64,000 bases of DNA from a virus. A program made the translations under genes and the position numbers. The stretch is taken from the IMG/VR virus record IMGVR_UViG_3300043446_003867, positions 25,082 to 89,081 of that record; one strand, written 5' to 3'. How positions within the stretch are numbered: the stretch's first letter is position 1; each line of letters opens with the position of its first letter. Positions 24,958 to 42,021 of the stretch are shown here, one piece after another. The notes beneath the pieces were generated by a model that was not told where the DNA came from, did not search any database, and was given only the letters and a program-made list of their open reading frames with translations.

Positions 24958-24986
24958 TCAACTGAGGTAAGGGAGTAACCTCGCAC

Positions 24987-25814
24987 ATGAACGGTATGGA
25001 CCAAGCCACCACCACCGAGGTCACGGGGACGCCCGTGACCGCATCTGTTTCCACGACGGGCACCGCGCCCGTCACGACTGCCGTTGGTACTGCTACGGGC
25101 GAGTCGTTTGCGACGAAGAAGGCCGAACCGGCGACCGCACAGGCGGCGGAACCCAAGGCGACCAAGCGCGCAACGAAGCTCTCGCTCTCGCAGCAGGACT
25201 TCAACGAACGCATCAAGCGCGCGAAGACGAGCGCGTTCAAGGATGCGTTCGGCACCGACGACGTCGATAGTATCAAGCAGCGTCTCGCTCGCGCCGAGGA
25301 GCTGGAGGCGCAAGCCGAGGAGGCGCGCGTCGCTCGTATGAGTGAAGTGCAGCGTGTGAAGTACGAAGCGGATCGTGCGCGCCGAGAGGCGCAACAGTAT
25401 CGCGCGCAGGTTGAAGAGATGCGCGAGCGCGAAGTGGTTCGCGATCAGCAGTCCTTCGTGGAGCGCGTTGCATCGCGACACGTCAATCCGGTTTACATGG
25501 AGGAGGCGTCGATCGCCTTCGCTCGTGAAGTCGCGAAGGCGGATCCCCGTGAAGTTGCTCGCTGGACTGAGAAGGACGTTAGCCGTTGGTTCGCGAGCTA
25601 CGTCGCGAAGAAGCCCGCGTTCGCCGCGTCGCCGAACGCGCGTAAGATTGAGAAGAAAATCGCGAGCGCGCCCACGCCGCCGCCGCGCCCCGCTCGCCCT
25701 GCGACTCCGAGTGGGTCGGCGGTTCCGAGCAAGACGTTCAAGCCGGGTCAGCCGAACAGCATGACGCGCGAAGAAGCGCGAGCAGAAGCGAAGCGACGCG
25801 GTTACACTTGGTGA
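24987..25814 (+). CDS. Capsid scaffolding protein
   Basis: Directly upstream of MCP; SQQDFNERIKR, coiled coil ELEAQAEE...MSEVQR, Pro-rich C-terminus. Confidence 0.75.
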   Translation: MNGMDQATTTEVTGTPVTASVSTTGTAPVTTAVGTATGESFATKKAEPATAQAAEPKATKRATKLSLSQQDFNERIKRAKTSAFKDAFGTDDVDSIKQRLARAEELEAQAEEARVARMSEVQRVKYEADRARREAQQYRAQVEEMREREVVRDQQSFVERVASRHVNPVYMEEASIAFAREVAKADPREVARWTEKDVSRWFASYVAKKPAFAASPNARKIEKKIASAPTPPPRPARPATPSGSAVPSKTFKPGQPNSMTREEARAEAKRRGYTW

Positions 25815-25935
25815 TGTTCTAACGTCGATGATCTCGACACCGACGCTCACGCTACGCTGGCGGTCAACAGCGGTTTCAAGCGACGGGCAGAGATAAGACG
25901 ACATAAAGTCAGTCAGTCAGTCAGGAGAAAGATCA

Positions 25936-27324: not shown

Positions 27325-27342
27325 TCGTTGCGGTATAGAGAA

Positions 27343-27372
27343 GGGCGAGCCTCGAAAGGGGCTCGCTCTTTT
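27343..27372 (+). terminator. Intrinsic terminator after major capsid gene
   Basis: GGGCGAGCCTC-GAAA-GGGGCTCGCTC-TTTT. Confidence 0.85.
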
Positions 27373-27480
27373 CGTTAGAAGTCATGCTATTCATCGTGAC
27401 GCAGGGTCGCCGTAACCTTCCCCGAGTGCCCCCCCTCGGAACGCATCGCGGCGACCCTGCACTTCATGGGATGGTGCAAG

Positions 27481-28428
27481 ATGCGGCAGACGTCATTGAT
27501 TACATGGGCGCGAGCAACCAGCGGCTTCGGCGACAAGCGATCCGGCAAAACCGAGTTCTCGTCGCAACAGGCGTTGCAAACGTATTTGCGCCAGCATCCG
27601 AAGGCGGACGCAAGCAAGCACTCCGTCGTGCAGCAAAAGCAGCAGCAGGCGCAGAAGGAAGAACCGTCTCGCAAGACTGCGCAGAGCCACGGGCATGCGG
27701 TCAGCGAGAAGGCGCGTGCGGAAACCAAGTCCAAGATCGAAACGCTCGCAAAGCAGGGGAAGGTCGCAGGTAGCTACGACGCGCTCCACAAAGAGGGCGT
27801 TGAGTTTTTGAAGAAGCACGCGGCGGGTCTTCCGGCGTCGAAGTCGGCGCTCACGGAGTTGTCCGCAGACCTTGGCGGCAAGGTGTCGGGGCGTACGAAG
27901 GAGATCGATTCGGCGCTCAACAAGGTTGTGCTGAAGCACAAGGGGAACGATCCGAGTCGCCCCGAGAAGGGTTACTCCAAGGTGTCGGAACTTGCGGACG
28001 GCGCGGGTCTTCGATGCATTGTAAACTCACCGAAGGACGTGCTCACGGTCGTTGATCGGTTGAAGAAGGATCCTCGCTTTGAGAACATCTCGAAGGACGA
28101 GGAGGATTACATCACCAAGCCCAAGGGCGGGTATCGCTCGTACCACCTTGTCATGCGCGACAAGCGCGATGGGCTGTTGAAGGAATTTCAGATCCGGACG
28201 CCTCGGCAGAATACGTGGGGCGATTGGTGTCACGACGTCTACAAGCCGCAGAACGCGTTGCAGATGGCGACGATGAAGGATCCGCTCGCGAAGCGCGAAG
28301 TGCTCGCGTACGCCGAGAAGATGTCGGATCGTTACTTCGACATGGATAGCGGGAAGAAGCCGCGCGGGTCGGCACCGCCTTGTACGCCCGCCATCAAAAA
28401 GTCGTTCGGGTGTCTGCCCGATAAGTAG
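27481..28428 (+). CDS. RelA/SpoT-family small alarmone synthetase domain protein with N-terminal extension (start 27466 or 27481)
   Basis: GRTK..SA..K, LADGAGLRCIV, DYITKPKGGYRSYHL, EFQIRT..Q..W....H synthetase motifs; no HD hydrolase domain. Confidence 0.9.
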   Translation: MRQTSLITWARATSGFGDKRSGKTEFSSQQALQTYLRQHPKADASKHSVVQQKQQQAQKEEPSRKTAQSHGHAVSEKARAETKSKIETLAKQGKVAGSYDALHKEGVEFLKKHAAGLPASKSALTELSADLGGKVSGRTKEIDSALNKVVLKHKGNDPSRPEKGYSKVSELADGAGLRCIVNSPKDVLTVVDRLKKDPRFENISKDEEDYITKPKGGYRSYHLVMRDKRDGLLKEFQIRTPRQNTWGDWCHDVYKPQNALQMATMKDPLAKREVLAYAEKMSDRYFDMDSGKKPRGSAPPCTPAIKKSFGCLPDK

Positions 28429-28439
28429 GAGCGAAAACC

Positions 28440-28673
28440 ATGGCTGACAAATCGTGGGTTGAGCGGTCGAGTGAAGCGATTGAGCGCTTCATGCCGAAGG
28501 CTGGCGAGGGGTTCAACGTCGTTGCGGTCGATGCGTACGAGGAACCCGGCGACGAGTTGTACCTAGTCGGTAACTTCGAGAGCGAAGCCGAGGCAGAGGA
28601 AGCGGCGGCAGCGCATACGAAGCGCAGCGGCGATAAGGCGTACGTGTACGCGCCGGAAACGTTGAGGCGTTGA
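28440..28673 (+). CDS. Small acidic protein (candidate antitoxin/partner of the synthetase)
   Basis: AGGAG RBS 11 nt after SAS stop; D/E-rich 77 aa. Confidence 0.65.
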   Translation: MADKSWVERSSEAIERFMPKAGEGFNVVAVDAYEEPGDELYLVGNFESEAEAEEAAAAHTKRSGDKAYVYAPETLRR

Positions 28674-28674
28674 G

Positions 28675-29517
28675 ATGCCACTCAAAAAGGGTTCTAGCGA
28701 CGAAACGATTGGCGCCAACATCGGTAAGTTGGTCGGAGAAGGCTACCCGCAGAAGCAGGCTGTAGCGATCGCCTACAAGGAGGCGGGTCGCAGCAAGTCT
28801 GGTTCGGAATGCGTTGCGTGCTCGACGAAGAGTGCGCGTGGCAAGTGCGTGAAGTGCGAAAGCGGTCGCGGCGCTCTGGTGACGTGGGCTCGCTCGGTGA
28901 GCGGCATGGGTCGCAGTGGCAAGGCAGAGTTCTCTTCGCAACAGGCGTTGCAGAGCTACCTTCGCCAGCATCCGAAGGCTGACGCGAGCAAGCATAGCGT
29001 TGCGCAGGCGGCGACGAAGTCGGCTGCGCCGCAAGAGGCCAAGCCCGAGGTTCACCCGGAGTTTTCCAAGTTCGTCTCTACGCTGTACCCGGCTATTGCG
29101 GCGGGTCATCTATCCGGACCCGATTCTCTGAAACTCATGGCGAAGCATCCGCACGCTCCTGCCGGGTTCGAGAAACATCTGGAGGGCGACGCGAGCAAGC
29201 ATAGCGTGACGGGCGGAGAGCAGCCGAAACTCGCCGAGGCACGTCCGTCGATTAAGCGCGCGTCGACGAGTCGCTTTCAGGATCCGAAGGGGCCGATGAA
29301 GTGGCGGGCTGGCGACGATTCTAGCAAGTACATTCACACGCTTGATGGAACGTACAATTGGACGCCTTCAACTGGGCATCTCTCGTTCATTTCAAATAAG
29401 AACGGGCGGCGCACCGTTCTTTCCAAGGATCTTAATCCACGGCGCACTGGCGGATTTCACGATATGAAAAACGAAGAGCAAGCCATGGAGCGCGTCAAGC
29501 AACACGCGAATAGGTGA
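28675..29517 (+). CDS. Composite head-associated hypothetical protein
   Basis: N-terminal PLKKGSS.ETI..NI..L..EGYPQKQAVAIA motif seen in many phage proteins; CxxC pair; ~45-aa segment shared with the SAS N-terminus. Confidence 0.75.
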   Translation: MPLKKGSSDETIGANIGKLVGEGYPQKQAVAIAYKEAGRSKSGSECVACSTKSARGKCVKCESGRGALVTWARSVSGMGRSGKAEFSSQQALQSYLRQHPKADASKHSVAQAATKSAAPQEAKPEVHPEFSKFVSTLYPAIAAGHLSGPDSLKLMAKHPHAPAGFEKHLEGDASKHSVTGGEQPKLAEARPSIKRASTSRFQDPKGPMKWRAGDDSSKYIHTLDGTYNWTPSTGHLSFISNKNGRRTVLSKDLNPRRTGGFHDMKNEEQAMERVKQHANR

Positions 29518-29520
29518 GCC

Positions 29521-30612
29521 ATGGCCGGGAAGTACGACCACATCGACTTCAAGCCACCGTCATCCGTCGCGAACGCGGCGGAGCGCGGGCTTGAGTACCG
29601 CAAGAAGCAGGGCAAGGACAAAGCCGGCTTGACGCAGAAGGAAGCGTCGAAGCAGGGCATCGGCTCTGGCGTTCAGCGCGCGTCGAACCTTAAGGGGCGG
29701 AGCAATCTGAGCCCCGAGACGGTGCGGCAGATGGGTCGGTTCTTCTCGCGTCATGAGAAGAACGCGAAGATCGATGCGGAGCACAAGGGTGAGCCCTGGA
29801 AGGACAAGGGCTACGTAGCGTGGCTCCTTTGGGGTGGCGACGCTGGGCGGTCGTGGGCGAACAAGGTGATTCGGCAGATGGACGCTGCGGACAAGAAGTC
29901 GGGCAAGGGCATCGAGGACGCGTGCTGGAAGGGCTACGAGGCGGTCGGCATGAAGACCAAGAATGGTCGGAAGGTGCCGAACTGCGTGCCGAAGAAGGGT
30001 AAGGGAATCCCCGACGCGCAGGAGCGCGCGGCGTTCGATATCCCTCTCGCTCGGTGGGCGAACGCGATGGGCGGTCGCGGCGTCGAGCTTCGCGCTCCGG
30101 CGGTGAAGCAGAAGACGAACTACTCGTGCGGACCGGCGGCGCTTCGTTCGGGAATGGCGGCGCTCGGTGTCGGCGCGAAGGAAGACGAGCTAGCCGAGAA
30201 GGCGGAGACGAGCGCGAGCGGTGGCACGAGTATCCACGGGCTCGCGAAGGCGGCGCAGGCGTTCGATCTGGAAGCCGAGATCCGCGATGGCATGACGGTG
30301 GACGAACTCATGTCGTGCATGGACGATGGGTGCGTGGTCCTCGTTTGCTTGCAGGCGGGCGACGACGCGGAGGATTACGATTCTTCGCACTGGGTGCTGC
30401 CGGTAGCGGTGAAGGACGAGGGCGGCGCTCCGATCGTCGAGTGCATGGACCCGAGCCGGAAGAAGGTTCACTCCGTGATGAAGCTCGACGAGTTCGAGGA
30501 GCGCTGGCACTGCGTCGACATGGGCAAGCCGGTCAACGGGCTCGCGCTCGTGATCCGCGGAGAGTCGCCGGCGAACATGACGCTGATCGACACGGCGAAA
30601 ATGCCGATGTGA
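29521..30612 (+). CDS. Multidomain protein with C-terminal C39-like (papain-fold) cysteine peptidase
   Basis: QKTNYSCGPAAL (Q/C), GGTS..GL..AA, SHWV (H), MDP (D); N-terminal PP..V..AA.RGL...AWLLWGGDAG..WA domain and CWKGY..VGMK.KNGRKVPNCVP motif. Confidence 0.85.
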   Translation: MAGKYDHIDFKPPSSVANAAERGLEYRKKQGKDKAGLTQKEASKQGIGSGVQRASNLKGRSNLSPETVRQMGRFFSRHEKNAKIDAEHKGEPWKDKGYVAWLLWGGDAGRSWANKVIRQMDAADKKSGKGIEDACWKGYEAVGMKTKNGRKVPNCVPKKGKGIPDAQERAAFDIPLARWANAMGGRGVELRAPAVKQKTNYSCGPAALRSGMAALGVGAKEDELAEKAETSASGGTSIHGLAKAAQAFDLEAEIRDGMTVDELMSCMDDGCVVLVCLQAGDDAEDYDSSHWVLPVAVKDEGGAPIVECMDPSRKKVHSVMKLDEFEERWHCVDMGKPVNGLALVIRGESPANMTLIDTAKMPM

Positions 30613-30657
30613 CGAGCGCGTCGAAGCCCGCTATGATGCGCGCGGAGGTGTTTCGTC

Positions 30658-30972
30658 ATGGCTCGTAAGCAACGCGAAGATAATCAGCAGGGAATCGCCG
30701 ACTACTCGTACACGTCGCAGTCGTCGGCGGTGGAGATGGTCGACAACAGCGCCGAACTCATCGATCCCGCACCGATGGGCGGGACGGCGTACGAGGAGCG
30801 CGCGGCGATGCTCGCGGACGTTCCGCCGATCAAGCAGTACCGCGTCGTTAGCGACGCTCTCGTGATGAACCGAGGCGCGCGCACTCTGCTCCGCGCCGGG
30901 AAGATCATCGACGGGGCGAACTACGACCTGGAGCAGTTGAGCACGCAAGGCGTTCGGTTCGAGGAATACTGA
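30658..30972 (+). CDS. Hypothetical protein
   Basis: GGAGG RBS; upstream TATGAT. Confidence 0.65.
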   Translation: MARKQREDNQQGIADYSYTSQSSAVEMVDNSAELIDPAPMGGTAYEERAAMLADVPPIKQYRVVSDALVMNRGARTLLRAGKIIDGANYDLEQLSTQGVRFEEY

Positions 30973-31154
30973 TGCCGTTCGAGGACGACGTCGCTAGCGT
31001 TCACTTGTTCGACGTTGGCGACGACGTTCTCGAATCAGACGTCGCGTACGATTCGGCAACGATGCTCGCGCTGCTCTGGTTCGCGGCGCGCTACGATGCA
31101 GCGATGGTGTCGGGCGCGGCGAACTTCATCATTCAGGAAGCGAGCGAGGGATAG
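30972..31154 (+). CDS. Small hypothetical protein
   Basis: TGATG coupling. Confidence 0.45.
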   Translation: MPFEDDVASVHLFDVGDDVLESDVAYDSATMLALLWFAARYDAAMVSGAANFIIQEASEG

Positions 31155-31157
31155 GCG

Positions 31158-31562
31158 ATGGCATTCAGCGAGCAAGAGAAGGTCCGGATCCGACATCACC
31201 TCGGCTACCTGAACGTCGGGCAAGCCTACACGTTCGTTGCTGGCGCTCCGGCGGGCGTTGAAACGCAGTTCCTCATTGAAGGTGCGATGCAGCGCGTGCT
31301 TCCCGAAGCCGAGACGTTGGCGAGGGAACTGCTCGCGCGGTGCGATTCGGTCGAAGGGCAGATGATGGACAACCAGGATCTGCTCGCGGTCGAGCAGGTC
31401 GATGAAATCAAGATCCGCCAGGACGAGTTCCAGGCGCTCTTGAAGCGGTATCACTACCATCGGAACGCACTGGCGAACGTCCTCGGCGTCTACCCGAACC
31501 CGTTCGACAAGCGTTTTGCGGCGGGGACCGGCGGTGGTATCAACGTCAACGTTCAGCACTGA
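31158..31562 (+). CDS. Putative head-tail adaptor/neck protein
   Basis: FSEQEKVRIRHHLGY N-terminus; position after head genes. Confidence 0.6.
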   Translation: MAFSEQEKVRIRHHLGYLNVGQAYTFVAGAPAGVETQFLIEGAMQRVLPEAETLARELLARCDSVEGQMMDNQDLLAVEQVDEIKIRQDEFQALLKRYHYHRNALANVLGVYPNPFDKRFAAGTGGGINVNVQH

Positions 31563-31573
31563 GGAGAAGTTCG

Positions 31574-31843
31574 ATGTCCAAGATTGTGGTTCTCGCCCCG
31601 TTCAGCGCCGCTGTCAGCAGCGGTCCGCGTAAGTTCCTTCCCGGCGACGTGGTCGATAGCGACCAGTACAGCGCCGCCGACTACACGGCGATCACGTCGG
31701 CTGCTCCGACGAAGTACACCGCCGCGTTCGACGCGCCGGCTCCCGCGCTCATCGCGGCGCAGGCGCAGGCGATCGAGATCCGCAACAACGGCGGTGATCC
31801 CGAGAACCAGACCGAGGGCATCATGTACCGAGCGATGTTCTGA
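31574..31843 (+). CDS. Small structural protein resembling fibre N-terminal domain
   Basis: GAGGAG RBS, biased codons, followed by terminator. Confidence 0.65.
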   Translation: MSKIVVLAPFSAAVSSGPRKFLPGDVVDSDQYSAADYTAITSAAPTKYTAAFDAPAPALIAAQAQAIEIRNNGGDPENQTEGIMYRAMF

Positions 31844-31872
31844 GCATCTAGGCGCCCCATAGCGCGACTTTT

Positions 31873-31907
31873 AGACGCGGAGCCTAACAGGCCCGCGTCT
31901 TTCGTTT
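31873..31907 (+). terminator. Intrinsic terminator
   Basis: AGACGCGG.GCCT-AAC-AGGC-CCGCGTCT-TTCGTTT. Confidence 0.7.
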
Positions 31908-31948
31908 GAGCGGCTGACGTAGCGCCCGTGGAGCGCTACGCTGCGGTC

Positions 31949-32500
31949 ATGCCACGTCCGCACCCGCTGCAACCGTTCCAAGCCAAGATGACGCTCGCGA
32001 ACCGGCTTCGGGGTCCGGCGGATCGCGTGCGGCAGATCGCGACCGACATGGGCGTGCGACCGTACCGCGTGTTCCTCGTGTGGACGACGTTCCAGGGCGA
32101 GGAGCGCGGCGAAGGCACCGAAGTCGAGTTGGCGCGCGTCGAGATTCTGCCGACGCCGAAGATCGGTGAGTTGACCAGCCTCGGCATGAACCCGTACTCG
32201 CAGGGTTTCGCGAGCACGGGCTCGCTTCGCCTTGAGAAGATCAGCGCGGGGTTCACGCAGCCGCAGCTCATGGGGCTCGAAGTGCCAGGGCGCGGGCAGC
32301 TTCCGAACATGCCTCGCAACGTCGACTTCTGGTACGAGATGCGTGAGGACGGGCGCGGCGGCGATAAACCGGTGCCGCTCCGCTATCGCCTCGCATCGTC
32401 GCCGTATCGCGCGGCGGGACGTGTCTCGTGGTCGGTCATGCTAGAACGGCAAGACGAGGCGACGCAGATGGATGGACAGCCGCCGTTCGCGTTGAGGTGA
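31949..32500 (+). CDS. Putative head closure/neck protein
   Basis: Synteny between adaptor and gp10-like gene; TACGCT 6 nt before ATG. Confidence 0.55.
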   Translation: MPRPHPLQPFQAKMTLANRLRGPADRVRQIATDMGVRPYRVFLVWTTFQGEERGEGTEVELARVEILPTPKIGELTSLGMNPYSQGFASTGSLRLEKISAGFTQPQLMGLEVPGRGQLPNMPRNVDFWYEMREDGRGGDKPVPLRYRLASSPYRAAGRVSWSVMLERQDEATQMDGQPPFALR

Positions 32501-32503
32501 ACC

Positions 32504-33022
32504 ATGGCGACCGTTATCAAACTCAGTGATGCGGCAGTCTACTTCGGCACGTCGGGTCCGGTGGCGGTCAAGCTGAAGACCGCGGCGCTCAAGGGGATCT
32601 ACTCCGCCGCGCTTCGGTCGAAGCAGATTCTTCAAACGACCGAGATTCAGGATGCGGATCCTCCGCCGGTAAACAAGGGCGTCTATCGCGCTGGATGGCA
32701 GGTGGAGAAGCTGAAGAACGGGGCGGCGTATTACAACAGCGTGCCGTACGCGCGATATATCGAGGACGGTGTGCCGGCGATGAACGTCGTCATGTCGCAG
32801 AAAGCGATCATGGCGATTGCTGAGTGGGCGCGTAGGAAGCTCGGCGGCTTGGACGAGAAGCAGGCGCTCAACGTCGCGTATGCGATCATGCAGAACCTCA
32901 AGAAGCGCGGTATTTTCAAACACGGCGCGGGCTTGAAGATCATGAAGAAGTACAACGATCGGAAGCTCAACGAAGTCATTCGGCGAGAGATCGACGCTGA
33001 GATCGACAAGGTGAAGTTTTGA
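32504..33022 (+). CDS. HK97 gp10-like neck/tail completion protein
   Basis: PVNKGVYRAGW...NSVPYARYIEDG motif. Confidence 0.75.
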   Translation: MATVIKLSDAAVYFGTSGPVAVKLKTAALKGIYSAALRSKQILQTTEIQDADPPPVNKGVYRAGWQVEKLKNGAAYYNSVPYARYIEDGVPAMNVVMSQKAIMAIAEWARRKLGGLDEKQALNVAYAIMQNLKKRGIFKHGAGLKIMKKYNDRKLNEVIRREIDAEIDKVKF

Positions 33023-33924
33023 GCACGAAGTACTTAGACAATCCGATCGCATCGCCGCCGACGGTTACGCAGCGATACGGCGAACCGCCGTACCCGATGC
33101 TGCCGAATATCGACGCGCGCTCGCATGGGCTGCGTGTTCTCAGTCGATGGTTCTCGTCGCTCGTGTTCCGGCGCACCATGGCACCCAATCAAGAACCGGA
33201 AGCGTTCAGCGTCACGCCGGATCGAGTCTTCTACGAAATGCCCGATAGCGTCGAGATGCTGGAGTTCCCGGCGATTGGCGTTCTTCCGGGACGAGGGCAG
33301 TACATCACGCGTGGCATTGGCGGCGCGGATCCTGGCGAAGCGCGTGAGGACGGTTACTCGCTAAGTATCCCGTACGACTACCAGGAGATGTTGACGGTCG
33401 AGGTGATCGGCTCAAAAATCGCCGAGCGGCGCGCGATGATCGCGGGTATCGAATCTGCGGTCGGATCGTACGAGGGCACGACCGACCTCCGCTTGGTGAT
33501 GCCGGAGTACTACGGACTGGCGGCGACCTACTCGCTCATGGAACGCGAGAACCTGGAGGAGCCGGATTCGCCTCGCGGTCGTCGGCGCGGGCATTTGTTC
33601 ATTCAAATGCTTGTGCCAGTCGTGACGCAGGCGCGGCTTGTAGAGTTCTTCCCGAGCGTTGACATCAACGTGTCGGGATCGATCGGCGCCGACGTGGGCG
33701 TCGGCTTCTTTCCGTCTAAGGTGGAGGCGGCGACGCTTGCCTACACTGGGACGCAGGCGCTCGCGGCGATGGGTCTGGATGTCTTTCAGGCGCGCACCAT
33801 CGCCCGAGCTACGCTAGGGATCAACAGATTGGAGGCGGACGCGCTGACGATCGACTATCTGGTTGCCTTGATGCAGTGGCTCGCGGCGAGGAATGCTACC
33901 TTGCGCACAGCTACGACCCCGTGA
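33019..33924 (+). CDS. Putative tail terminator protein
   Basis: Immediately upstream of sheath; FPAIGV motif. Confidence 0.55.
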   Translation: MSTKYLDNPIASPPTVTQRYGEPPYPMLPNIDARSHGLRVLSRWFSSLVFRRTMAPNQEPEAFSVTPDRVFYEMPDSVEMLEFPAIGVLPGRGQYITRGIGGADPGEAREDGYSLSIPYDYQEMLTVEVIGSKIAERRAMIAGIESAVGSYEGTTDLRLVMPEYYGLAATYSLMERENLEEPDSPRGRRRGHLFIQMLVPVVTQARLVEFFPSVDINVSGSIGADVGVGFFPSKVEAATLAYTGTQALAAMGLDVFQARTIARATLGINRLEADALTIDYLVALMQWLAARNATLRTATTP

Positions 33925-33948
33925 GACAGTTCGCATAGGAGTTCGCAC

Positions 33949-36453
33949 ATGTCCGTTTTCATCCGTCGATTCACCTTTGACCCCGGCGTCCAAGTTTTTC
34001 TTGAGATCGAGGCGGTCAACGTCCTGGACCTGACTCCGCCGTCGTCGATCACGGGTGTCGGCACTGGCACCGCAATGATCGTGGGCGAGTTCGAGGACGG
34101 GCCGTTCAACACGCCGCTTGAAGTCACGAGTGCGACGGAGCTTGCGAGCACGTTCGGCAACTTCGGTTACACGTACGGTGGCGTGACGGCGCAGAACCCC
34201 TGCGCTCGCGTGCGCTACGCCGATGGCGCAGTGGTTCCTGAGTACTGGAACGGTAACGGGCTCCTCGCGCTCAACGCGAAGCGCTTTTCCCGTCTCCTCA
34301 TCACCCGCGCCGACACCAGCGTCGGCGTCGTTGACTTTGAGCGTTGCGCGTCGATCGTCGGTGGTTCGGCGTTCACCTACTCGCTCTCGCCGGCGCAGAC
34401 GTTCATCTTTGGCACGGCCACGGCGTCGTACACGGTGACGTTCAACGCGGCGGCGGCGACGCTCACCAGCGCGGCGGGCGTCTACCCGACGGGCTTCACG
34501 GGTGGCGAAGTGATGACGATCGTTCGCGACGGCATCACGTATACGGTCGTCTTTCAGGCGAGCGATCAGACGCAGACGCAGGTAATCGACCGCATCAACG
34601 GCACGCTGGGCTACACGGCGGCGGTCAACGGCGGCGGTGGCGTTACCACGCTCTCGTCGCTCAATCGCGGTTCGGGCGCGACGATCGCGATCACCGCGCC
34701 GACGACGGCGTCGGTTCTCGCGGCGACTGGTTTCGTGATCGCGTCGGCGACGGGCACCGGCAACGTGTTGAACATCGCGGCGGTTACGGCGTCCGAGATT
34801 GCTTCGCTCGTCAGCACGGCCTCCGCTGGTGCGGTTGTGCTCACGCAGCTTGATAGCGGCGCGCTCCGCCTTGAGGGTATCGGCGCTCCACTCACGGGCG
34901 TGCTTCGAGTGACGGGTGGCACGGCGACCGCGGCGCTCGGCTTCTCGCTCACGCAGAACGCGGCGTGGCAAAATGCGCCGGTTGAAGTTGAGATCGACGC
35001 GATCGATGCGGGCGTCGCGGCGGCGCTCGGCTTCGCGGTTACGACGGCGCGTCCGGTGATCGTCAGCAGTGCGGGCGTTTACCCGACGGCGTTCGTCGGC
35101 GGTGAAGAGATGACCATCACGGTTGCGGGTTCCGCGCCGAAGGTCGTCACGTTCCAGTCGACCGATCAGACGATCGCGCAGGTTGCGGCGCGTATCAACC
35201 TCACGCTCGGTTACACGGCGGTCGTTGCGCAGAGCGCGACGATCCTCGCGATGGCGGGCACGGGGCAAAGCAGCATCGCGATCCCGGCGGGCACGCGCGT
35301 TCGCAACGCGGGCGGCAACGTGTGGGTCACGATGCAGACCCAGGCAGTCGACGCGGGCGCTCCTGGTCCGTACGCGCTCAAGGTTCGTCCTGCGACCGAC
35401 GACGGCACGGCGCCTCTCGCGGCGGCGCTTTCGATCAACGCGCTCAGCTCGCCGTTGTTCGGTGCGGCGTTCATCGTGTTCAACCCGCTCCAAGTGAATG
35501 CGGCGTTGAGCGAGTCGGCGATCGATGCATCGTACACGGTGGCGATCGACTCAACGCTTAACAGCGCGTCGGTTGCGGCGGAGACGAACATCATCTGGTC
35601 GGCTCGCCAATCGAACGCGGTGCGCACGAAGCTCCGCCAGAACGCGAACGACGCGGCGTCTAGCGGCCTCTACGGACGCATCGCCGTGATTCGTCCGCCG
35701 CTCAAGACCACGAAGGCGCAGGCGCGTTCGGGCGCGGCGCAACCGGGCGTCGGCGCGTACCGCGACCAGCGCGTTGTGTACGTCTATCCGGGCGTGCAGA
35801 CGTTCATTCCGGCGATCGCGACGATCGGCACTGCTGGCGGCGCTGGCTTTACGGCTGATGGCATCATTGACATCGGCGCTGACGGATTCCTCGCGTCGGT
35901 GTGTTCGCAGCTTCCGCCGGAGGAGAACCCCGGTCAGCTCACGACGTTCACGGGCGGCGCGCTCGGCATTGAGGCGGGCAACCCCGACGTGCAGAACCTC
36001 ACGCTCACGGACTACAAGAACTTCCGCGCTTCGGGCATCTGCGCGCCTCGCATGGATCTCGGGACGATGATCTTCCAGTCGGGCGTAACCTCGGTCGATC
36101 CGGCGGTCTACCCCTCGCTGCGCAACATCAACCGTCGTCGCATGGCGGACTTCATTCAGGACAGCCTTGCGATCGCGCTCAAGGCGTTCGGTAAGCAGCT
36201 CGCGACTCGCACGCGTCGCGCGCTCATCACTGGACAGATCAAGTCCTTCATGGACGGGCTGCTCTCGCCGAACAACAGTGCGGCGCAGCGCATTGAGGGC
36301 TACACGATCGACAGCGTGAGCGGGAACACCGCAGAAACGCTGGCGCTCGGGATCTTCCGTATCATCCTGAACGTCCGTACGATCGCCTCGCTCGACGCGA
36401 TCGTGCTGCAAACGACCGTCGGCGAATCTGTGGACGTGTCTCAGACCGCGTGA
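33949..36453 (+). CDS. Contractile tail sheath protein
   Basis: PGV...E N-terminus, VGEFEDGPFNTP..VTS..E....FG, C-terminal LRNINRRRMADFI. Confidence 0.92.
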   Translation: MSVFIRRFTFDPGVQVFLEIEAVNVLDLTPPSSITGVGTGTAMIVGEFEDGPFNTPLEVTSATELASTFGNFGYTYGGVTAQNPCARVRYADGAVVPEYWNGNGLLALNAKRFSRLLITRADTSVGVVDFERCASIVGGSAFTYSLSPAQTFIFGTATASYTVTFNAAAATLTSAAGVYPTGFTGGEVMTIVRDGITYTVVFQASDQTQTQVIDRINGTLGYTAAVNGGGGVTTLSSLNRGSGATIAITAPTTASVLAATGFVIASATGTGNVLNIAAVTASEIASLVSTASAGAVVLTQLDSGALRLEGIGAPLTGVLRVTGGTATAALGFSLTQNAAWQNAPVEVEIDAIDAGVAAALGFAVTTARPVIVSSAGVYPTAFVGGEEMTITVAGSAPKVVTFQSTDQTIAQVAARINLTLGYTAVVAQSATILAMAGTGQSSIAIPAGTRVRNAGGNVWVTMQTQAVDAGAPGPYALKVRPATDDGTAPLAAALSINALSSPLFGAAFIVFNPLQVNAALSESAIDASYTVAIDSTLNSASVAAETNIIWSARQSNAVRTKLRQNANDAASSGLYGRIAVIRPPLKTTKAQARSGAAQPGVGAYRDQRVVYVYPGVQTFIPAIATIGTAGGAGFTADGIIDIGADGFLASVCSQLPPEENPGQLTTFTGGALGIEAGNPDVQNLTLTDYKNFRASGICAPRMDLGTMIFQSGVTSVDPAVYPSLRNINRRRMADFIQDSLAIALKAFGKQLATRTRRALITGQIKSFMDGLLSPNNSAAQRIEGYTIDSVSGNTAETLALGIFRIILNVRTIASLDAIVLQTTVGESVDVSQTA

Positions 36454-36470
36454 GCTAGGAGAGCAGAGCT

Positions 36471-36914
36471 ATGGCAACGAATGATCCGCGTCTCAGAGGG
36501 CAAGAAGTCGAGGTCCGTATCGTCACGAACGGAACCCTTGAAAACAGCATCACGGCGGTCGCCACGTTTGAGGAAACCTTCAAGCTGGAGAAGAAGGAAG
36601 ACGCCTTCCTCGGCGAGACGAACAACCGTTACGATCACATCTTCCAGGGCATCGACGGTCGCATGGAGTTCCAGGTGAACTCAAACGACTGGATGATCTT
36701 CCAAAACGTGATCAAGGCGCAGGCGCAGCGCAAGACGCCGGGCACCAAGATCAACCTCACGCGCACCGACTACTACGCGAACGGGCAGACGAGCATCATC
36801 ACGTACTCGGATTGCAAGTTCGGTCCTTCGCCTACCAGCGTCGCCGGACGCGGGGAGTTCGTGAAGGTGTCGCTCGACTTCTCGTGCTCGGATCGAGTTG
36901 AGCAGTTGAGCTAA
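36471..36914 (+). CDS. Tail tube protein
   Basis: 147 aa directly after sheath, AGGAG RBS. Confidence 0.8.
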   Translation: MATNDPRLRGQEVEVRIVTNGTLENSITAVATFEETFKLEKKEDAFLGETNNRYDHIFQGIDGRMEFQVNSNDWMIFQNVIKAQAQRKTPGTKINLTRTDYYANGQTSIITYSDCKFGPSPTSVAGRGEFVKVSLDFSCSDRVEQLS

Positions 36915-37025
36915 CGCGCGAAAGCGCACAAGTGGACCGGGGCGCCGGTATGCTTCGATGACGATCGCGGCACCTCCCTATCGGCGTTCCGGTCCTCTTT
37001 TCGACGGGAGAAAGAAAAGAGGAAC

Positions 37026-37571
37026 ATGATGAAAGAACACACGCGAAAACTGTCTTCGATGCCTGCGACCGAGGAGCCTAAGCAAGACGACTTCCCCGAG
37101 GTCGATCACGCGACGGAGCCTTTGCCTGCTGCGGCGACGATGCCGGAACCCGAAGGGGATGACGTTCCTGATTGGGTCGTCATCCCTGACAACATGAAGA
37201 TCCCGCGAGGCAAGCGGTTGACGTTCGTTCGCTTCCGCGCGAACTGGACGGATTCGCCCTTCAAGGGAGAGCGGCAGTGCGTGATCTGGACGCTGACTGA
37301 CGGCGAGGAAAAACTCGCTAACGATCGGTGTGCAGGATCGCCGACGCGAGCGCCTGCGGAGTACACGAAGCAGATGATTCGTGTGGTCGACGGCGTTCTC
37401 GTCGATTGGTCGAAGACGCGCGGACCGGGGAGCGTCGACGAGTTTTGGAAGGAGATCGGCCCCAAGTGTCGATCGATGCTCATGCGTATGTACACGCAAC
37501 TGCACCTTCCCTCGGACGAGGACATCAACGATTTTTTTCAGCACTGCGTCGCTGTGCGCACGGCGAACTGA
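37026..37571 (+). CDS. Tail assembly chaperone (gpG-like)
   Basis: Between tube and tape measure; ends shortly after slippery T-TTT-TTT. Confidence 0.7.
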   Translation: MMKEHTRKLSSMPATEEPKQDDFPEVDHATEPLPAAATMPEPEGDDVPDWVVIPDNMKIPRGKRLTFVRFRANWTDSPFKGERQCVIWTLTDGEEKLANDRCAGSPTRAPAEYTKQMIRVVDGVLVDWSKTRGPGSVDEFWKEIGPKCRSMLMRMYTQLHLPSDEDINDFFQHCVAVRTAN

Positions 37572-37885
37572 CGCGAACGACCGATGGCCATTGGCAAGAC
37601 CCCGACGAGCGAAAACGATTGCTGTACGGCGTCGCTCGCTTGTCGGGCGTTCCGATGCAGGATGCGCACTTCGCGCGAGTCCTTGAAGAGATCATGGACC
37701 CGGCGACGCTTGAACGGCAGCGCGTTCGGCGGCACGTCTATCTTGCGAAGTACGGGAAGCAGTCGATGCTTCAGTGGGAGAACGTCGATTCGCGCGTAGT
37801 TCGACAGTATGCAACGGCGCTATCCGATTTCATCGCGGAGGAGAACGAAGCGATGAGGCGCGAGAATAGTCGCCACGAGGAGTGA
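37532..37885 (+). other. Probable -1 programmed frameshift site and gpGT-like extension
   Basis: GAT TTT TTT CAG at 37530-37541; the -1 frame is open to TGA at 37885, four nt before tape measure ATG. Confidence 0.75.
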
Positions 37886-37889
37886 AGCT

Positions 37890-39929
37890 ATGGCGACCGG
37901 CCCCGAGATCAAAACTAAGATCACGATCGATGACGCGGCGACTGCAACGCTGAAGGACATTGAGAAGGGCTTTCGCGACGCTGGCAAAGAAGCGGAGAAG
38001 ACGTCGACCGCCGCGACCGGATTCATCAAGCAGTTCGCGGCGGTCGCGCTCGGCGTCAACATCGGAAACATCCTCGGCGGCATCAAGTCAGGATTGATGT
38101 CCGGCTTCGATGCTGCCGTGGAGGCCGACAAAGAGTTCCGAAAGCTCACGCAAAGCGTGATCGGGATTCAGCGATACGGGAAGCAGTCTTTCGACTCGCT
38201 GCAAGAGCGCGCGACGCTCGTGAAGAAGGCGATTGAGTCGATCGCGGACGCGTCGCAAATATCGCGTCGCGAGTTGGTCGATGCGTTTAACGACGCGGCG
38301 AAGAACACGTCGCTCACTGACACGCAGCTTACGAAGCTCATGTCGCGTCTCGCGGATTCCTCTCGCGCGTTGCCTGCGCCGATCAAGGAAACGCTGGCCG
38401 GCTTTGAGGAGCTAAACAAGAACATGATCAGCGCGAGCAATCCGATCGTGCTGATGGTGAAGCAGGCGGGCTTGCTGCGAGGACACAGCGAGCGCATCGC
38501 CAAAGAGATGGAGTGGATGGGGAAGACTCGCCGCATCAAGTATGCGGAAGAGGCGCTGGCCATCCTGCAAGATCGCGCGAAGAAGATCCCGCCGTCGCTT
38601 GCTGACATCAGTGCGCGCTTCGACGATATGAAGACCGACGCGCTGCGGTCGTTTGGAACGCCGTTGCTGCGCGCGTTCCTTCCCGCGTTGGAGGGCGTTT
38701 ACAAGAAGATGACCGAAGGGCGCGGCGACATTGAAGCGTACGCGCGCGAACTCGGAATGCAGGTCGGTCAGTGGGTCACGGAGGCGGCGCAGAAGATCAA
38801 AGACGGCTTCCAGTACCTTCGCGAAAACGGCTCGGAGATCAAAAAGAACATCGTTGAGGCGTTCACGAACGCGCGCGACATCTTCACAGGCATCTACAAT
38901 CGCGCGAAGGAAATCGCGACGATCTACGCGGCAGTCAAGACGAGTCAGATCATCACTCCTGCTGCTCAGGCGGCGGGTGGGTTGGCAACTGCGGCGGTTG
39001 GAAGGGCGACCGCGCCGCTTGCAGTTGGCGGGATGAACGCAGCGCTCATGCCGGGCATGGCGCTGGGTGCGGGCGCGGCGGCGGCGGCGAGTGGCGGCGC
39101 TCTGGCGAGCATCGCAGCCTTCGTGGGGCCACAGGGCGCCCTCGCGGCGATGATCTTGAGCTTCTTGGCTGCAAAGGACGCGGTCGATGATCTGAGCGAA
39201 ACTATGGCGAACGAAACGCGCCGCGATCTTCAGTCGCGTATGCGGTTCTTCGATGGCATCGCGCAGAAGTTCGACACACTTAGCGACAGCGAAATTGAGG
39301 CGTTCGAGCGAGTGAAGGTGGCGGCGTTGGAAAACGCCGAGGCTCTTGGACTCAATACGAGCGAGATCACTGCGCAGATCGACGCGCAGATGCTGGCGCA
39401 TCGCAACTTGGAAGCGGCGACGATCGGCGCGCAGTCGGCGATGGAAAAGATGCAAGGCATCCAAGACAAGACCGCTCTCGGTGGCATGTCTGGGCTTGCG
39501 GCGATCGAAGCAGATCGGATGAAACTTGAAGCGGCTCAGCAGTTTGCCGAGTCCTTCAACTCAGCGTCCGAGATGAACTTCCAAGCGGCGATCGCAGCCG
39601 ACGCGAAGATGGCGATGAGTTCGGAGACGATGAAGCAGACGCTGTTGACGCACGGCGCGGCGGCTGGTCTTGCTCTCGACAAGCTGGCGGATGCAGTGTC
39701 GTCGACGGATCGCGCGTTCGCTCGGGATCTTCGCCTCGCAGCGTTGAAGGCGGGGGAAAAGGGCGGCAAGGAAACGCGCAACCTGATCTTCAACGGCGCG
39801 CAGTTTACGATCAAGCAGGATTTCCGCGACCAAGACCCCGATCGCGTTGCCGTGGTCTTCCAGCGTGATATTACCCGAGCCGCTGAGAATCGCATCATGG
39901 CCTCGACGGTCCGAGCGTTCGGCGGTTGA
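37890..39929 (+). CDS. Tape measure protein
   Basis: 679-aa helical Ala-rich protein, ITIDDAATATLKDI start; canonical position. Confidence 0.85.
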   Translation: MATGPEIKTKITIDDAATATLKDIEKGFRDAGKEAEKTSTAATGFIKQFAAVALGVNIGNILGGIKSGLMSGFDAAVEADKEFRKLTQSVIGIQRYGKQSFDSLQERATLVKKAIESIADASQISRRELVDAFNDAAKNTSLTDTQLTKLMSRLADSSRALPAPIKETLAGFEELNKNMISASNPIVLMVKQAGLLRGHSERIAKEMEWMGKTRRIKYAEEALAILQDRAKKIPPSLADISARFDDMKTDALRSFGTPLLRAFLPALEGVYKKMTEGRGDIEAYARELGMQVGQWVTEAAQKIKDGFQYLRENGSEIKKNIVEAFTNARDIFTGIYNRAKEIATIYAAVKTSQIITPAAQAAGGLATAAVGRATAPLAVGGMNAALMPGMALGAGAAAAASGGALASIAAFVGPQGALAAMILSFLAAKDAVDDLSETMANETRRDLQSRMRFFDGIAQKFDTLSDSEIEAFERVKVAALENAEALGLNTSEITAQIDAQMLAHRNLEAATIGAQSAMEKMQGIQDKTALGGMSGLAAIEADRMKLEAAQQFAESFNSASEMNFQAAIAADAKMAMSSETMKQTLLTHGAAAGLALDKLADAVSSTDRAFARDLRLAALKAGEKGGKETRNLIFNGAQFTIKQDFRDQDPDRVAVVFQRDITRAAENRIMASTVRAFGG

Positions 39930-39983
39930 CGGTTGCACATCACCGCCATCGCGCGGTAAGTTCACACACCAGGAGATTTCAGA

Positions 39984-40562
39984 ATGAAGACCATCGTCAT
40001 CGCCGCCCCCGACCAGCTTCCGCCGGAAATGGCGGACGATCCTTCCGTCCTCGTGCTTGATCCTGCGACGCTTGATGACGAGCTGATGGCGATGCTCGAC
40101 GCGGCGAGCGGCGGCATGATGGGCGAGGACGACGAGTCGGGCGAGGGCGCGCTCGCCGATTGGGCGGCTGAAGAAGAGAAGGAGCCGGAGCACGCGAAGG
40201 GCGGCTACGGCGACGAGGACGATGAAGAGACGCGTCAGATGTCCGGCGAGGGCGACGACGAGGACGAAGAGTCTGGCGAGGGCGACGACGAGGACGAAGA
40301 GTCTGGCGAAGGCGACGACGCGATGGACGATCCCGAGACGCGCTTCGGCAAGGGCGGTCGCGCTGATGACGAAGACGAGGACGAGTCCGGCGAAGGCGAG
40401 GAGCAGGACATTGACGAGTCGAAGAAGCCGTCTGGCAGCGGTCGTGGCAAGATGGGCTACGGCAAGATGGGCTACGGCAAGATGGGTCACGCGAAGGGCG
40501 GCAAGGGGCTTCCTCCGCTCGCGGCGTGGGCGCGCTCGATGGGCGGCATGGGCCGTCGCTGA
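39984..40562 (+). CDS. Highly acidic low-complexity protein with own promoter and terminator
   Basis: AGGAG RBS; ESGEGDDEDE repeats, GKMGY repeats; TTGCAC-N18-TAAGTT upstream. Confidence 0.8.
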   Translation: MKTIVIAAPDQLPPEMADDPSVLVLDPATLDDELMAMLDAASGGMMGEDDESGEGALADWAAEEEKEPEHAKGGYGDEDDEETRQMSGEGDDEDEESGEGDDEDEESGEGDDAMDDPETRFGKGGRADDEDEDESGEGEEQDIDESKKPSGSGRGKMGYGKMGYGKMGHAKGGKGLPPLAAWARSMGGMGRR

Positions 40563-40575
40563 TCGGTCAATCAAC

Positions 40576-40607
40576 GGAGCCGGAGCATCACTGCTCCGGC
40601 TTCTTTC
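40576..40607 (+). terminator. Intrinsic terminator
   Basis: GGAGCCGGAGCA-TCAC-TGCTCCGGCTTC-TTTC. Confidence 0.75.
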
Positions 40608-40632
40608 ATTTGCGCGCTAGAGTGGGGGCACC

Positions 40633-42021
40633 ATGGCGTCGTCGTTCATCACAATCGAAGAGCTTTCCGGCGCGTTGCGCTCGGTGACGTTGCGCGGTGC
40701 GGCGCTACCCAAGCAGAACTCGGCGAACTGGGGTGCGAAGCAGCGCGTCGTCACGACGTGGTATCCCGGCAACGGGGCGGAGGCGACGCAGCAGATCCTC
40801 GGTCCGACGGAGTCGCAGACGCGATGGGAGGGCGAGTGGAACACGAACCGCCTTGTGGGGATCGATTCCGTATCCTTCTCGGATGGGAGTTCTCCCGGTG
40901 TTGTGCGAAGCATCTTTTCGGCGAACGACGTCGCGGCGGTGATTGAGGATATCTTGCGCGCTGGATCGTCGCTGCGTGTGATCTGGGCCTACGATCCTGA
41001 GCGGTACGATCCGAACACTGGAATCAGCCTCGCGGGAACTTACGTCCCGGTTGAGATCATCCGCGAAGGGCGCGCAATTGAGTGGGATTTCAAGTACGCC
41101 ACGGGTGACGACATCACTTGGTCGATCACTTGGGATTGGCGTTCTCGCGGCAAGAATCAGCAGCAGGTCGTGCAGCTTCGCGACGGTTCGTCCTCAACGA
41201 AGAACGCGCTGACGGCGATGTCGCTCATCACCGAAGCGGCGGTGACGGTTCCGGAGGACAACACCGTGTATTCGGTCACGCGAACGGTGCCGCTCGGTGC
41301 GAGCAAGTTCACCCTCGGCCAGTTGCAGGCGCTCGCAAATCAAGTGCGTCAGCAGGTGCGCTTCTTCTCGCAAGCCATGAATCGAATCGCGGGACACATC
41401 GCGACGGTCACGGAGATCATCAACACGGTCAAGAACTTGCCGTTTGAGATCGCGAATCAGGCGCTCGACTTGTCGACGAACATGATCGCGGAATCGAATC
41501 GCTTCTACGACGCCGTCTCGCAGAAGCCGACGGAGCTGTACGACACCGAGCAAAAGTACACGACGTTCCTGCGCGCGATGAACTTCGCCAAAGGAGCGAC
41601 CGACATCTCGCAGGAGGTGGCGGCGACCGGTGCGGATTCTCAAAGCGTGTTCGCGGCGCAGCTTCAACAACAGCGTGCGTCTGGAGAACAGGGCAACGCG
41701 CAGCCGCTGGGCGTTAAGCCTGGGCGGCAAGTGGGTGGATCGAACACGCAGGCGCAAGCGCACGTCGTGCGGCGCGGCGATACGTTGATCAGTCTGAGCA
41801 TGCAGTTCTACGGCACGCCAGACGGTGCGGCGGACATCGCGTTCGCGAACGCGCTCAGCATTCGCACGCCGACGTTGCCGATCGGTCGCGTGTTGATCAT
41901 TCCGCCGCCGCGCAATCTGAGCGGCAACATCATCGGAGTCGCGCGCCCTGCGCTTCAACCAACGGCGCCGTTTTCACCGACGCTGCCTAACGGTCTTGGT
42001 TCCTCGTCGAACACGCCTTGA
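40633..42021 (+). CDS. Tail tube initiator/baseplate protein with C-terminal LysM domain
   Basis: HVVRRGDTLISLSMQFYG...IAFAN...LPIGRVLIIP; position after tape measure. Confidence 0.8.
   Translation: MASSFITIEELSGALRSVTLRGAALPKQNSANWGAKQRVVTTWYPGNGAEATQQILGPTESQTRWEGEWNTNRLVGIDSVSFSDGSSPGVVRSIFSANDVAAVIEDILRAGSSLRVIWAYDPERYDPNTGISLAGTYVPVEIIREGRAIEWDFKYATGDDITWSITWDWRSRGKNQQQVVQLRDGSSSTKNALTAMSLITEAAVTVPEDNTVYSVTRTVPLGASKFTLGQLQALANQVRQQVRFFSQAMNRIAGHIATVTEIINTVKNLPFEIANQALDLSTNMIAESNRFYDAVSQKPTELYDTEQKYTTFLRAMNFAKGATDISQEVAATGADSQSVFAAQLQQQRASGEQGNAQPLGVKPGRQVGGSNTQAQAHVVRRGDTLISLSMQFYGTPDGAADIAFANALSIRTPTLPIGRVLIIPPPRNLSGNIIGVARPALQPTAPFSPTLPNGLGSSSNTP

Follow-up and report, generated by a model that had tools for sequence, protein, structure and literature searches.

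In encapsulins a short C-terminal cargo-loading peptide docks an enzyme inside an HK97-fold shell, the C-terminal tail of the HK97 protease reportedly targets the capsid, and the targeting signal of phage T4 is removed by an essential prohead protease. Accessory proteins are loaded by short peptides in the capsid targeting of T4 and in phage P1, where the 30 N-terminal residues of DarB are sufficient (PMC9024508), and P1 DarA-Hdf is bound to the inner capsid surface (PMC12810830). RelA/SpoT and Zeta domains occur in polyvalent proteins (PMC5512222) and MuF toxins (PMC5576092), which have been proposed to be packaged in the head and injected, while in extracellular contractile injection systems (eCIS; PVC and Afp) toxins of many kinds are brought into a phage-tail-like tube, for injection, by disordered N-terminal signal peptides (PMC11495950, PMC10097599, 10.1101/2023.08.15.553202). 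Here we describe a tag of 10-12 residues built around Trp-Ala and present on four proteins, one of them a C39-like peptidase, in a 64,000-nucleotide stretch of viral DNA (the window), which makes up the right-hand part of one viral contig of 89,081 bp (IMG/VR record IMGVR_UViG_3300043446_003867, positions 25,082 to 89,081; GC 63%; CheckV completeness 97%). We favour, with moderate confidence, the view that this tag works as a docking peptide by which injected effectors are loaded into the virion.

A Trp-Ala tag on four late proteins

The initial annotation of the window had reported one LxxWA[RN]xx[GS]GxG motif on four proteins, and all four peptides were confirmed as written: SLITWARATSGFG at 27493-27531, ALVTWARSVSGMG at 28873-28911, PLARWANAMGGRG at 30043-30081 and PLAAWARSMGGMG at 40515-40553, each on the + strand and within a long open reading frame (ORF; Table 1). 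The pattern WA[RN]..[GS]G.G has exactly 4 matches in six frames, in the window and in the entire 89,081-bp genome alike, against a chance expectation of 0.09 on average and 2 at most (200 mononucleotide shuffles). All four tagged genes fall within the late structural block, with none in the other ~39 kb of early genes. That the carriers are otherwise different, as had also been proposed, is accurate for every pair that has the tag alone in common, and fails for the alarmone-synthetase-like protein and the 280-aa protein, which have in common 63 residues at 63% identity comprising the tag and a further module.

Aligned as DNA, the four copies have a mean column identity of 54%, while at the protein level L, W, A and two G are invariant; differing codons combined with invariant residues therefore indicate conservation of the protein sequence and not a recent DNA repeat. 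Across metagenomic relatives the conserved core is h-x-x-W-A-[RKNQ], set within a consensus of [P/G/N/S]-[L/M]-x-x-W-A-[R/K/N/Q]-x-x that is usually followed by a glycine-rich or basic tail, and the structure model predicts the tag to be helical. Each of the four window proteins bears a single tag, as do most of the relatives seen, and tandem or double tags occur in P0066, a 70-aa protein of L020 and P0006/P0007/P0012/L001. When only the loose pattern [LIVMF]..WA is counted over called genes (0.62 per 1000 residues in N-terminal, 0.87 in C-terminal and 0.35 in internal positions) the terminal enrichment is modest, because a 5-residue pattern of this kind is loose.

A position matrix built from 40 hand-picked tags returned, above 16 bits and over all fetched loci, 45 distinct peptides on the gene strand and 0 on the opposite strand. 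Eleven of these 45 lay outside the training set, namely 7 C-termini of proteins encoded directly after the tape measure gene, 2 instances of a helix in g172, 1 peptide in a doubtful frame and 1 without Trp. The g172 product itself is a neck/tail-completion-like protein (32504-33022, +), and its internal helix AIAEWARRKLGG at ~residues 105-118, with ALAEWARRKG and similar sequences in relatives, scores as tag-like; the likeness may be fortuitous or may point to mimicry of a structural helix by the tag. A tag-like ALADWAAEE is also found inside the fourth tagged protein of the window (residues 64-72; window 40173-40199).

These statistics bear on whether the tag could be a neutral recombination remnant, i.e. 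a module junction with no function of its own. Tags do sit at the junctions of shuffled modules, and the synthetase and 280-aa genes have a ~190-nt stretch of moderate DNA identity in common, as such a remnant would leave. However, W and A do not vary even in lineages whose capsid identity falls below 50% or in the low-GC L064, codons vary from copy to copy, the motif stays at termini and the decoy strand gives 0 matches, all of which makes this explanation highly improbable in our view.

Tagged cargo and its conserved carrier

Three of the tagged proteins are encoded in an island 3' of the capsid gene. The first is a RelA/SpoT-type small alarmone synthetase (SAS)-like protein that scores above the threshold of Pfam RelA_SpoT (PF04607; 2.3e-16, residues 142-259, 60.5 bits versus a cut-off of 27) and matches SAS enzymes in the PDB at 1.9e-7; its relatives begin with MRQ or MTKQ, in keeping with the start chosen in Table 1. 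A small acidic 77-aa ORF lies 12 nt past the synthetase gene and has no family match in profile searches; judged by position and size it is a candidate immunity or antitoxin protein, and small ORFs likewise follow MuF toxin genes (PMC5576092). The second cargo protein opens with 44 residues that match phrog_2423, followed by a Cys-rich stretch, the tag with its adjoining module, a second DASKHSV and a C-terminal part for which the ESM Atlas gave no usable match. In the third, a head-module domain (residues 4-126; 29530-29898) is joined by a Cys-rich linker to the tag and the C39-like peptidase. This N-terminal domain is present in 94 phage records, mostly of Vibrio phages, cyanophages and Roseobacter phages, and Vibrio phage 1.122.A has it at the head of a 661-aa coiled-coil protein encoded between the MuF-like and capsid genes (L107:4995-6980).

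For comparison we used 42 IMG/VR loci that encode a capsid protein 49-99% identical to that of the window. Their tagged-cargo islands lie after the capsid gene, after MuF, in the portal-MuF interval or after the connector gene g134, and the bodies they carry are diverse: two tagged island proteins belong to the type IB topoisomerases (9e-37 and 4e-28 in Pfam), and a protein after MuF in L023 joins RelA_SpoT and phosphatase domains to the tag only. On stand-alone peptidases the tag is N-terminal and runs straight into the Q..YTCGP active-site segment (MTELRAWADRVVGDAAVPD, MSDDLTTWANRVVDAVPD and MDPLKAWANVASGRGVAVPD in L011, L017 and L020), it is N-terminal on other cargo as well (L001, L003, twice in L005, twice in L023, and L038), and other copies are internal, at junctions rich in glycine. 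Among the peptidase homologues of a large protein collection, the closest 16 (51-98% identity) have a strongly conserved junction, ERAAFDIPLxRWAxAMxGGRG, and the modules upstream of it are shuffled. The expectation of the initial annotation that the motif would be found on variable effector domains near the capsid gene, and not at chance frequency, is thus what the relatives display, with its core conserved.

In the clade of the window the tag is part of a longer leader, in which a glycine-rich linker and the module EFxSxxALxxYLxxHPKADxSKHSV follow it. Locus L038, whose capsid protein is 99% identical, carries a topoisomerase IB behind this leader in place of the synthetase of the window. DNA identity between the window and L038 is 92-100% in the capsid gene, 72-76% in the leader and <=58% beyond it, and this collapse just past the leader (window 27481-27640, L038:11512-11670) therefore looks like a cassette-exchange junction. 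The residues that do not vary in the leader alignment are L, W, A, G, F, Y, HP, AD, SKH and V.

A word-based search for leader homologues gave only 4 proteins, and an exhaustive search with a 53-position leader profile was used instead, which returned 444 of 1.84 billion representative proteins at E<=1e-3. Among the best 150 of these 444, 33 match from the tag onward and hence contain both tag and module, with Trp invariant in 33/33 and nine invariant leader positions across these 33 protein clusters. The tag is N-terminal in 28 of them and stands behind a phrog_2423-like domain in the other 5, and their bodies are Topoisom_I (2), Zeta_toxin (2), RelA_SpoT (1) or without a Pfam match (28). The remaining 117 of the best 150 have the HPKAD module only, in 1-4 copies; the proteins concerned reach 1,281 residues, and a Zeta toxin domain is present in one. 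In its broader form, EFxSxxALxxYLxxHPxADxxKHxV, this module of ~30 residues (window sites 27547-27627 and 28921-29001) is repeated between the domains of large phage-type proteins, of which P0023, P0042, P0055 and P0059 are large multi-domain examples; a Pfam search of the large HPKAD-module proteins assigned it to no family, and the leader profile had no meaningful match in the PDB. Linkage of domains, docking and processing are all conceivable roles for the module. As read from these alignments, a conserved leader in front of a swappable body is an architecture like that of polymorphic toxins, with MuF encoded separately and bearing no extension.

The fourth tagged protein is of another kind, and the initial annotation had missed its standing. 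It is an acidic, disordered protein of 192 aa encoded directly 3' of the tape measure gene, with the tag ending 2 residues before its C-terminus. A single-sequence search with the LysM-bearing hub protein had found no corresponding loci, and 59 were then retrieved with an alignment built on the C-terminus of the tape measure protein. The ORF directly after the tape measure gene ends in the tag in 30 of the 41 closer loci (L043-L083), as in ..PPLAAWARNMVGGRGRIR, ..NPLASWARKRRGE, ..NPLMAWMKKKAK, ..ALAMWAHRMGGNGAPPM and, in a low-GC relative, ..VLSKWVDSRV; the other 11 comprise 2 with too little sequence, 7 with doubtful matches that were left uncounted and 2 with none, and 0 of the 18 more distant loci have a tagged C-terminus at this position. 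The 30 tagged ORFs are serine-rich or acidic and of low complexity, 50-340 residues long, and the C-terminal tags end 0-14 residues past WA. The complete genome G001 (100%, terminal repeats) and G002 (93%) both encode a tagged post-tape-measure protein and no C39 homologue, and G001 also has, after MuF, a protein of 258 aa in which a tag-like AVAAWARSADQ lies 22 residues short of the C-terminus; in the complete G003 the only two tag matches are the peptidase and the post-tape-measure protein. On this distribution the acidic protein is the conserved and widespread bearer of the tag, probably the ancestral one, and it belongs to the tail module. With the carrier in the tail module, a receptor on the tail side is therefore as plausible as one on the capsid.

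The C39-like peptidase and its genomic setting

The assignment of one carrier as a C39-like peptidase, made in the initial annotation, is well founded. Residues 193-329 match Pfam PF03412 at 6.9e-8 (32.8 bits, the cut-off being 22), and the tag precedes this match by 5 residues; DUF3335 reaches 27.1 bits against its cut-off of 25, and Peptidase_C39_2 scores 20.7, under its 24. The catalytic Q, C, H and D are invariant in 10/10 and 25/25 peptidase sequences, and C203 aligns with the residue mutated in PeiR-C90A. The structure model has a pLDDT of 78.5 overall and >85 over the domain, and in a Foldseek search of the PDB ranks 1-10 are the peptidase domains of PCAT1 and ComA (E 1e-5 to 2e-4, TMq ~0.5). 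Profiles and model together clearly point to a C39-fold cysteine peptidase with an intact Q/C/H/D set. The enzyme is not an ABC exporter by TIGR01193 (15 bits versus a cut-off of 524), and its domain, C-terminal in the 363-aa window protein, stands alone (~196 aa) in relatives.

By sequence the best match among solved structures is not a leader peptidase but PeiR, a phage-derived pseudomurein endoisopeptidase (3e-9, versus 1.5e-5 for ComA). Lysin domains fused to some tape measure proteins help the tail to cross peptidoglycan, and cell-wall cutting during entry is, on the combined sequence and model data, a serious alternative to protein processing for this enzyme. The peptidase would then be a virion-associated endopeptidase that aids the tail through peptidoglycan and neither a processing enzyme nor a toxin, which we hold as a tentative possibility. 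Apart from PeiR, it is favoured by the viral structural neighbours (Lysin A, endolysins, phi29 gp13-like hydrolases and one tape measure protein), by a weak endolysin PHROG match, by the LysM domain of the neighbouring hub-associated protein, and by G003, where the tag of the peptidase is common only to the tail-module protein. It has to contend with top PDB structural matches that are leader-peptide peptidases, with the absence of the enzyme from roughly half the relatives, whose infection does without it, and with the protein having no cell-wall-binding domain. Such a role is compatible with, and not opposed to, a docking function of the tag. A role as the lysis endolysin was rejected, there being a separate Phage_lysozyme gene in the window, among the early/middle genes and distant from the structural block. 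After MuF, at L023:6460-7188 and L005:6521-7210, relatives encode a 242-aa protein whose Cys/His motifs, on reading, suggest a papain-like or CHAP-type hydrolase with no obvious tag.

A C39-like gene directly 3' of the capsid gene is present in 19 of the 42 loci and absent from 19 (4 are too short), and among the five near-complete relatives only G003 has a C39 homologue. Judged by this distribution the peptidase is accessory, itself a tagged passenger and not the enzyme that defines the tag. It cannot be the head-maturation enzyme of the lineage, because it is accessory; that candidate role was rejected, no homologue being found in 4/5 near-complete relatives that also lack S78 and S49 proteases. 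In agreement with the initial annotation, which recognised no S49/S78-type prohead protease, profile searches with PF04586 (S78) and PF01343 (S49) found none in the window genome or in five relatives; a search with PF03420, whose control gave no match, is excluded from this result. Head assembly of the SPP1 type, with a scaffold and MuF, requires no protease, and a lineage free of S78 and S49 fits such a scheme by analogy.

It had also been proposed that the tag is a double-glycine site for the C39 enzyme, cut after [GS]G with W at -7 so as to release or activate the synthetase, the C-terminal part of the 280-aa protein and the peptidase itself. There is something to be said for this: the enzyme has a bona fide C39 fold with its catalytic set intact; GG[RK]G or SG.G follows the tag at the spacing of a double-glycine leader in 4/4 window copies and in the 16 closest peptidase homologues; tags lie at module junctions of mosaic proteins; and leader-bearing cargo was seen only on contigs that also have the peptidase (window, L001, L003/4, L005, L023). 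That co-occurrence, however, falls within one closely related clade and is thus not independent, and tags are present in the C39-free complete and near-complete genomes G001 and G002. Moreover, [GS]G at W+5 and W+6, found in 4/4 window tags, is not present in L002, L011 or L017, the glycine pair being missing in L002 (LVAWANAAGPE), L003, L011 and L017 (LTTWANRVVDAVPD); C-terminal tags leave nothing to release; and leader conservation runs 30 residues beyond the glycines, to SKHSV. As a general account C39 processing is therefore improbable, and the claim of a double-glycine site finds no support in its original form; from the sequences, cleavage is possible only as a clade-specific extra acting on the glycine-rich linker of the window clade. 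Of the composite proposal that the tag loads effectors and/or is cut by the C39 enzyme, what stands is a common, trafficking-like tag with swappable bodies, and what falls is the general cleavage site.

Gene order places the cargo and acidic-protein genes in the late structural block of a contractile-tailed phage (Table 1). The lineage has, as far as these searches reach, no close cultured relative, because neither megablast of window 24000-42000 against isolated phages nor tblastn of the putative sheath protein against phages gave a match; the closest isolates are one Streptomyces, two Komagataeibacter and four Ralstonia phages, in whose records the capsid protein is ~30% identical. A leader search of the GTDB species genomes had zero matches, so that these are not common prophages, and the same search of IMG/VR returned only contigs already in the locus set. 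Directly past the capsid stop, a GC-rich hairpin followed by a T-run resembles a terminator on sequence reading and would likely attenuate transcription, such that the cargo is made at a lower level than the capsid protein; a hairpin scan flagged this stem on the opposite strand. Overlapping ORFs between tube and tape measure (37026-37571 and 37328-37885, +) occupy the usual site of the frameshifted tail assembly chaperone pair, and ORFs of 1266 aa (53095-56895, +) and 2011 aa (57296-63331, +) close the tail module and are presumably fibres or host-recognition proteins.

Table 1. Tag copies, cargo genes and structural genes of the window (window coordinates)
Feature	Position	Strand	Details
Phage_lysozyme gene	10037-10423	-	131 bits
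Large terminase	14409-16049
Portal	20167-22086
Short MuF / SPP1 gp7-like minor head protein	22083-23114	+	343 aa; Pfam Phage_Mu_F 4.1e-8; TIGR01641 weak
Four small ORFs	between MuF-like gene and scaffold-like gene
Coiled-coil scaffold-like protein	24987-25814
Major capsid protein	25936-27324	+	phrog_1357 2.8e-18; 42 relatives
GC-rich hairpin, then TCTTTTCGTT (T-run)	27343-27375	+	sequence reading; before cargo island
Cargo island	27466-30612		3' of capsid gene
Cargo 1, SAS-like protein	27481-28428	+	ORF opens at 27466; likely start ATG 27481
Leader: tag, glycine-rich linker and HPKAD module	27481-27627	+
Tag copy 1, LITWARATSGFG	27496-27531	+	N-terminal in cargo 1
Small acidic ORF	28440-28673	+	77 aa; from ORF list
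Cargo 2	28675-29517	+	280 aa
Tag copy 2, LVTWARSVSGMG	28876-28911	+	internal, residues 68-79/280
Second GDASKHSV repeat	29185-29208	+	inside cargo 2
Cargo 3	29521-30612	+	363 aa
Tag copy 3, LARWANAMGGRG	30046-30081	+	residues 176-187/363, immediately before peptidase domain
C39-like peptidase domain	30097-30507	+	Q197, C203, H290, D310 invariant
Connector genes	after cargo island, before putative sheath
Putative sheath	33949-36453		834-aa ORF; label from position and size only, without family or phage match
Tube	36471-36914
Chaperone-like ORFs	between tube and tape measure
Tape measure protein	37890-39929	+	C-terminal 45 residues highly conserved
Acidic protein	39984-40562	+	192 aa
Tag copy 4, LAAWARSMGGMG	40518-40553	+	C-terminal, then only RR and stop codon
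LysM-bearing hub-associated protein, then hub	3' of acidic-protein gene

Proposed virion loading and described systems

A short invariant Trp-Ala motif at either end or in a linker, on enzymes of the MuF and polyvalent type and in the late block only, is what would be expected of a trafficking signal. In the docking reading that we favour, the tag would be the core of a short amphipathic docking peptide that serves as a position-independent address label, by which accessory effectors and one conserved protein, acidic and disordered, would be attached to some conserved virion component, so that the tagged proteins would ride in the particle and be delivered together with the DNA. In the window clade this label would have become fused to the HPKAD module to give a leader of ~50 residues, behind which payloads would be exchanged by recombination, an alarmone-synthetase-like body here and a topoisomerase IB in the relative with the 99% identical capsid protein. 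We divide the location of the receptor roughly evenly between head and tail. A head receptor, for which the capsid interior, the portal and MuF are candidates, is suggested because the cargo genes adjoin the capsid, MuF and portal genes; a receptor in the tail lumen or hub, with the tape measure and the hub lumen as candidates, is suggested because the carrier gene adjoins that of the tape measure and because in G003 the tag is common only to this carrier and a possibly wall-cutting peptidase.

Several points weigh against this reading. Evidence for tagged proteins in virions is so far indirect, the lineage being uncultured, and the receptor stands at candidates only (the short MuF protein and the tape measure protein among them); nor is a single receptor obvious when the carrier belongs to the tail module and the cargo to the head module. 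The tag helix is modelled with a pLDDT of only 50-57 and without a docked pose. All relatives are metagenomic contigs, many of them near-duplicates, such that locus counts are not independent and overstate the support, and the tags from which the position matrix was built were partly chosen by eye, so that its counts lean towards the model we favour. A terminal Trp with basic neighbours would also fit a helix that binds a membrane or a host factor. A predicted complex of MuF, peptidase domain and leader scored 0.00, and since it was run without controls it speaks neither for nor against binding.

The last of the points against leads to a further alternative, in which the tag is an address used after delivery or within the infected cell, an amphipathic Trp/basic helix that would take its bearer not to the virion but to the inner membrane or a hub protein of the host. 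The terminal position, flexible linkers and aromatic and basic residues (WAKRRSQGG, WMKKKAK, WVKKRGGK) do resemble membrane-targeting or hub-binding tails, and the post-tape-measure protein would be released at the envelope. On the other hand, Trp is followed by an invariant small Ala and the tag is only weakly hydrophobic (mean Kyte-Doolittle 0 to 0.7), which favours a specific protein pocket over lipid, it is hard to envisage a single cellular target common to a topoisomerase, alarmone synthetases, a Zeta kinase and a peptidase, and all the genes belong to the late structural block; we consider an in-cell address quite unlikely.

Although speculative, the boldest version of the docking model is that the cargo travels with the tape measure or hub and leaves the tail before the DNA, making a DNA phage an eCIS-like protein injector with a plug-in tag, and this we regard as unlikely, if somewhat less so than the in-cell address. 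Should virion loading prove correct in any form, this would be the first time that comparative genomics, rather than model-phage genetics, had yielded a virion address label that is portable, defined by sequence and independent of position. The tag would explain how injected effectors are swapped as cassettes without fusion to a structural protein, provide a simple rule (h-x-x-W-A-basic at a terminus) by which to find injected proteins in uncultured phages, and give a very short handle with which foreign proteins might be brought into phage particles. The conserved and unstudied disordered protein after the tape measure is in any case singled out for structural work.

Of the described systems, the closest likeness in kind is to the capsid targeting sequence (CTS) of the T4 internal proteins and Alt and to the signal of P1 DarB, which are likewise short peptides that load early-acting enzymes into the head for co-injection (PMC9024508). 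As with a CTS, one short peptide is common to several non-essential proteins, 4 in the window and at least 33 clusters with the full leader. The T4 and P1 signals are N-terminal only, whereas the phage tag is also internal and C-terminal and is present on a conserved tail-module protein, and the resemblance to them is one of description. Neither the window genome nor any of the five relatives gave a match to a head protease of the S78 or S49 family, whereas the T4 signal depends on a prohead protease for its removal. The P1 Dar proteins reportedly have no common motif (PMC9024508), unlike the tagged proteins here.

The island resembles MuF toxins and polyvalent proteins in its RelA/SpoT and Zeta domains, in its place in the head morphogenesis module and in its pairing of a conserved trafficking part with a variable toxic part, and the large HPKAD-module proteins resemble the polyvalent proteins of Iyer et al. 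(PMC5512222). The phage effectors differ in being separate genes with a 12-residue tag, neither fused to MuF, which is of the short form, nor part of one giant polypeptide, and the four peptidase superfamilies listed for polyvalent proteins in PMC5512222 do not include the C39 type. ComA, PCAT1 and LahT are like the phage peptidase in fold, catalytic residues and Pfam family and in having an amphipathic helix and Gly-Gly near the enzyme. They are unlike it in that the phage enzyme has no ABC transporter and is encoded in a head module, its tag also occurring without the enzyme and at C-termini, and the glycine pair is not conserved.

PVC and Afp reportedly need the AAA ATPase Pvc15 and are without a tape-measure-filled, DNA-delivering tail. 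We know of no eCIS payload motif comparable to h-x-x-W-A. Finally, in the HK97 protease and the encapsulins a C-terminal peptide brings one dedicated cargo to each shell, whereas the phage tag is found on many types of cargo and at either end of the protein.

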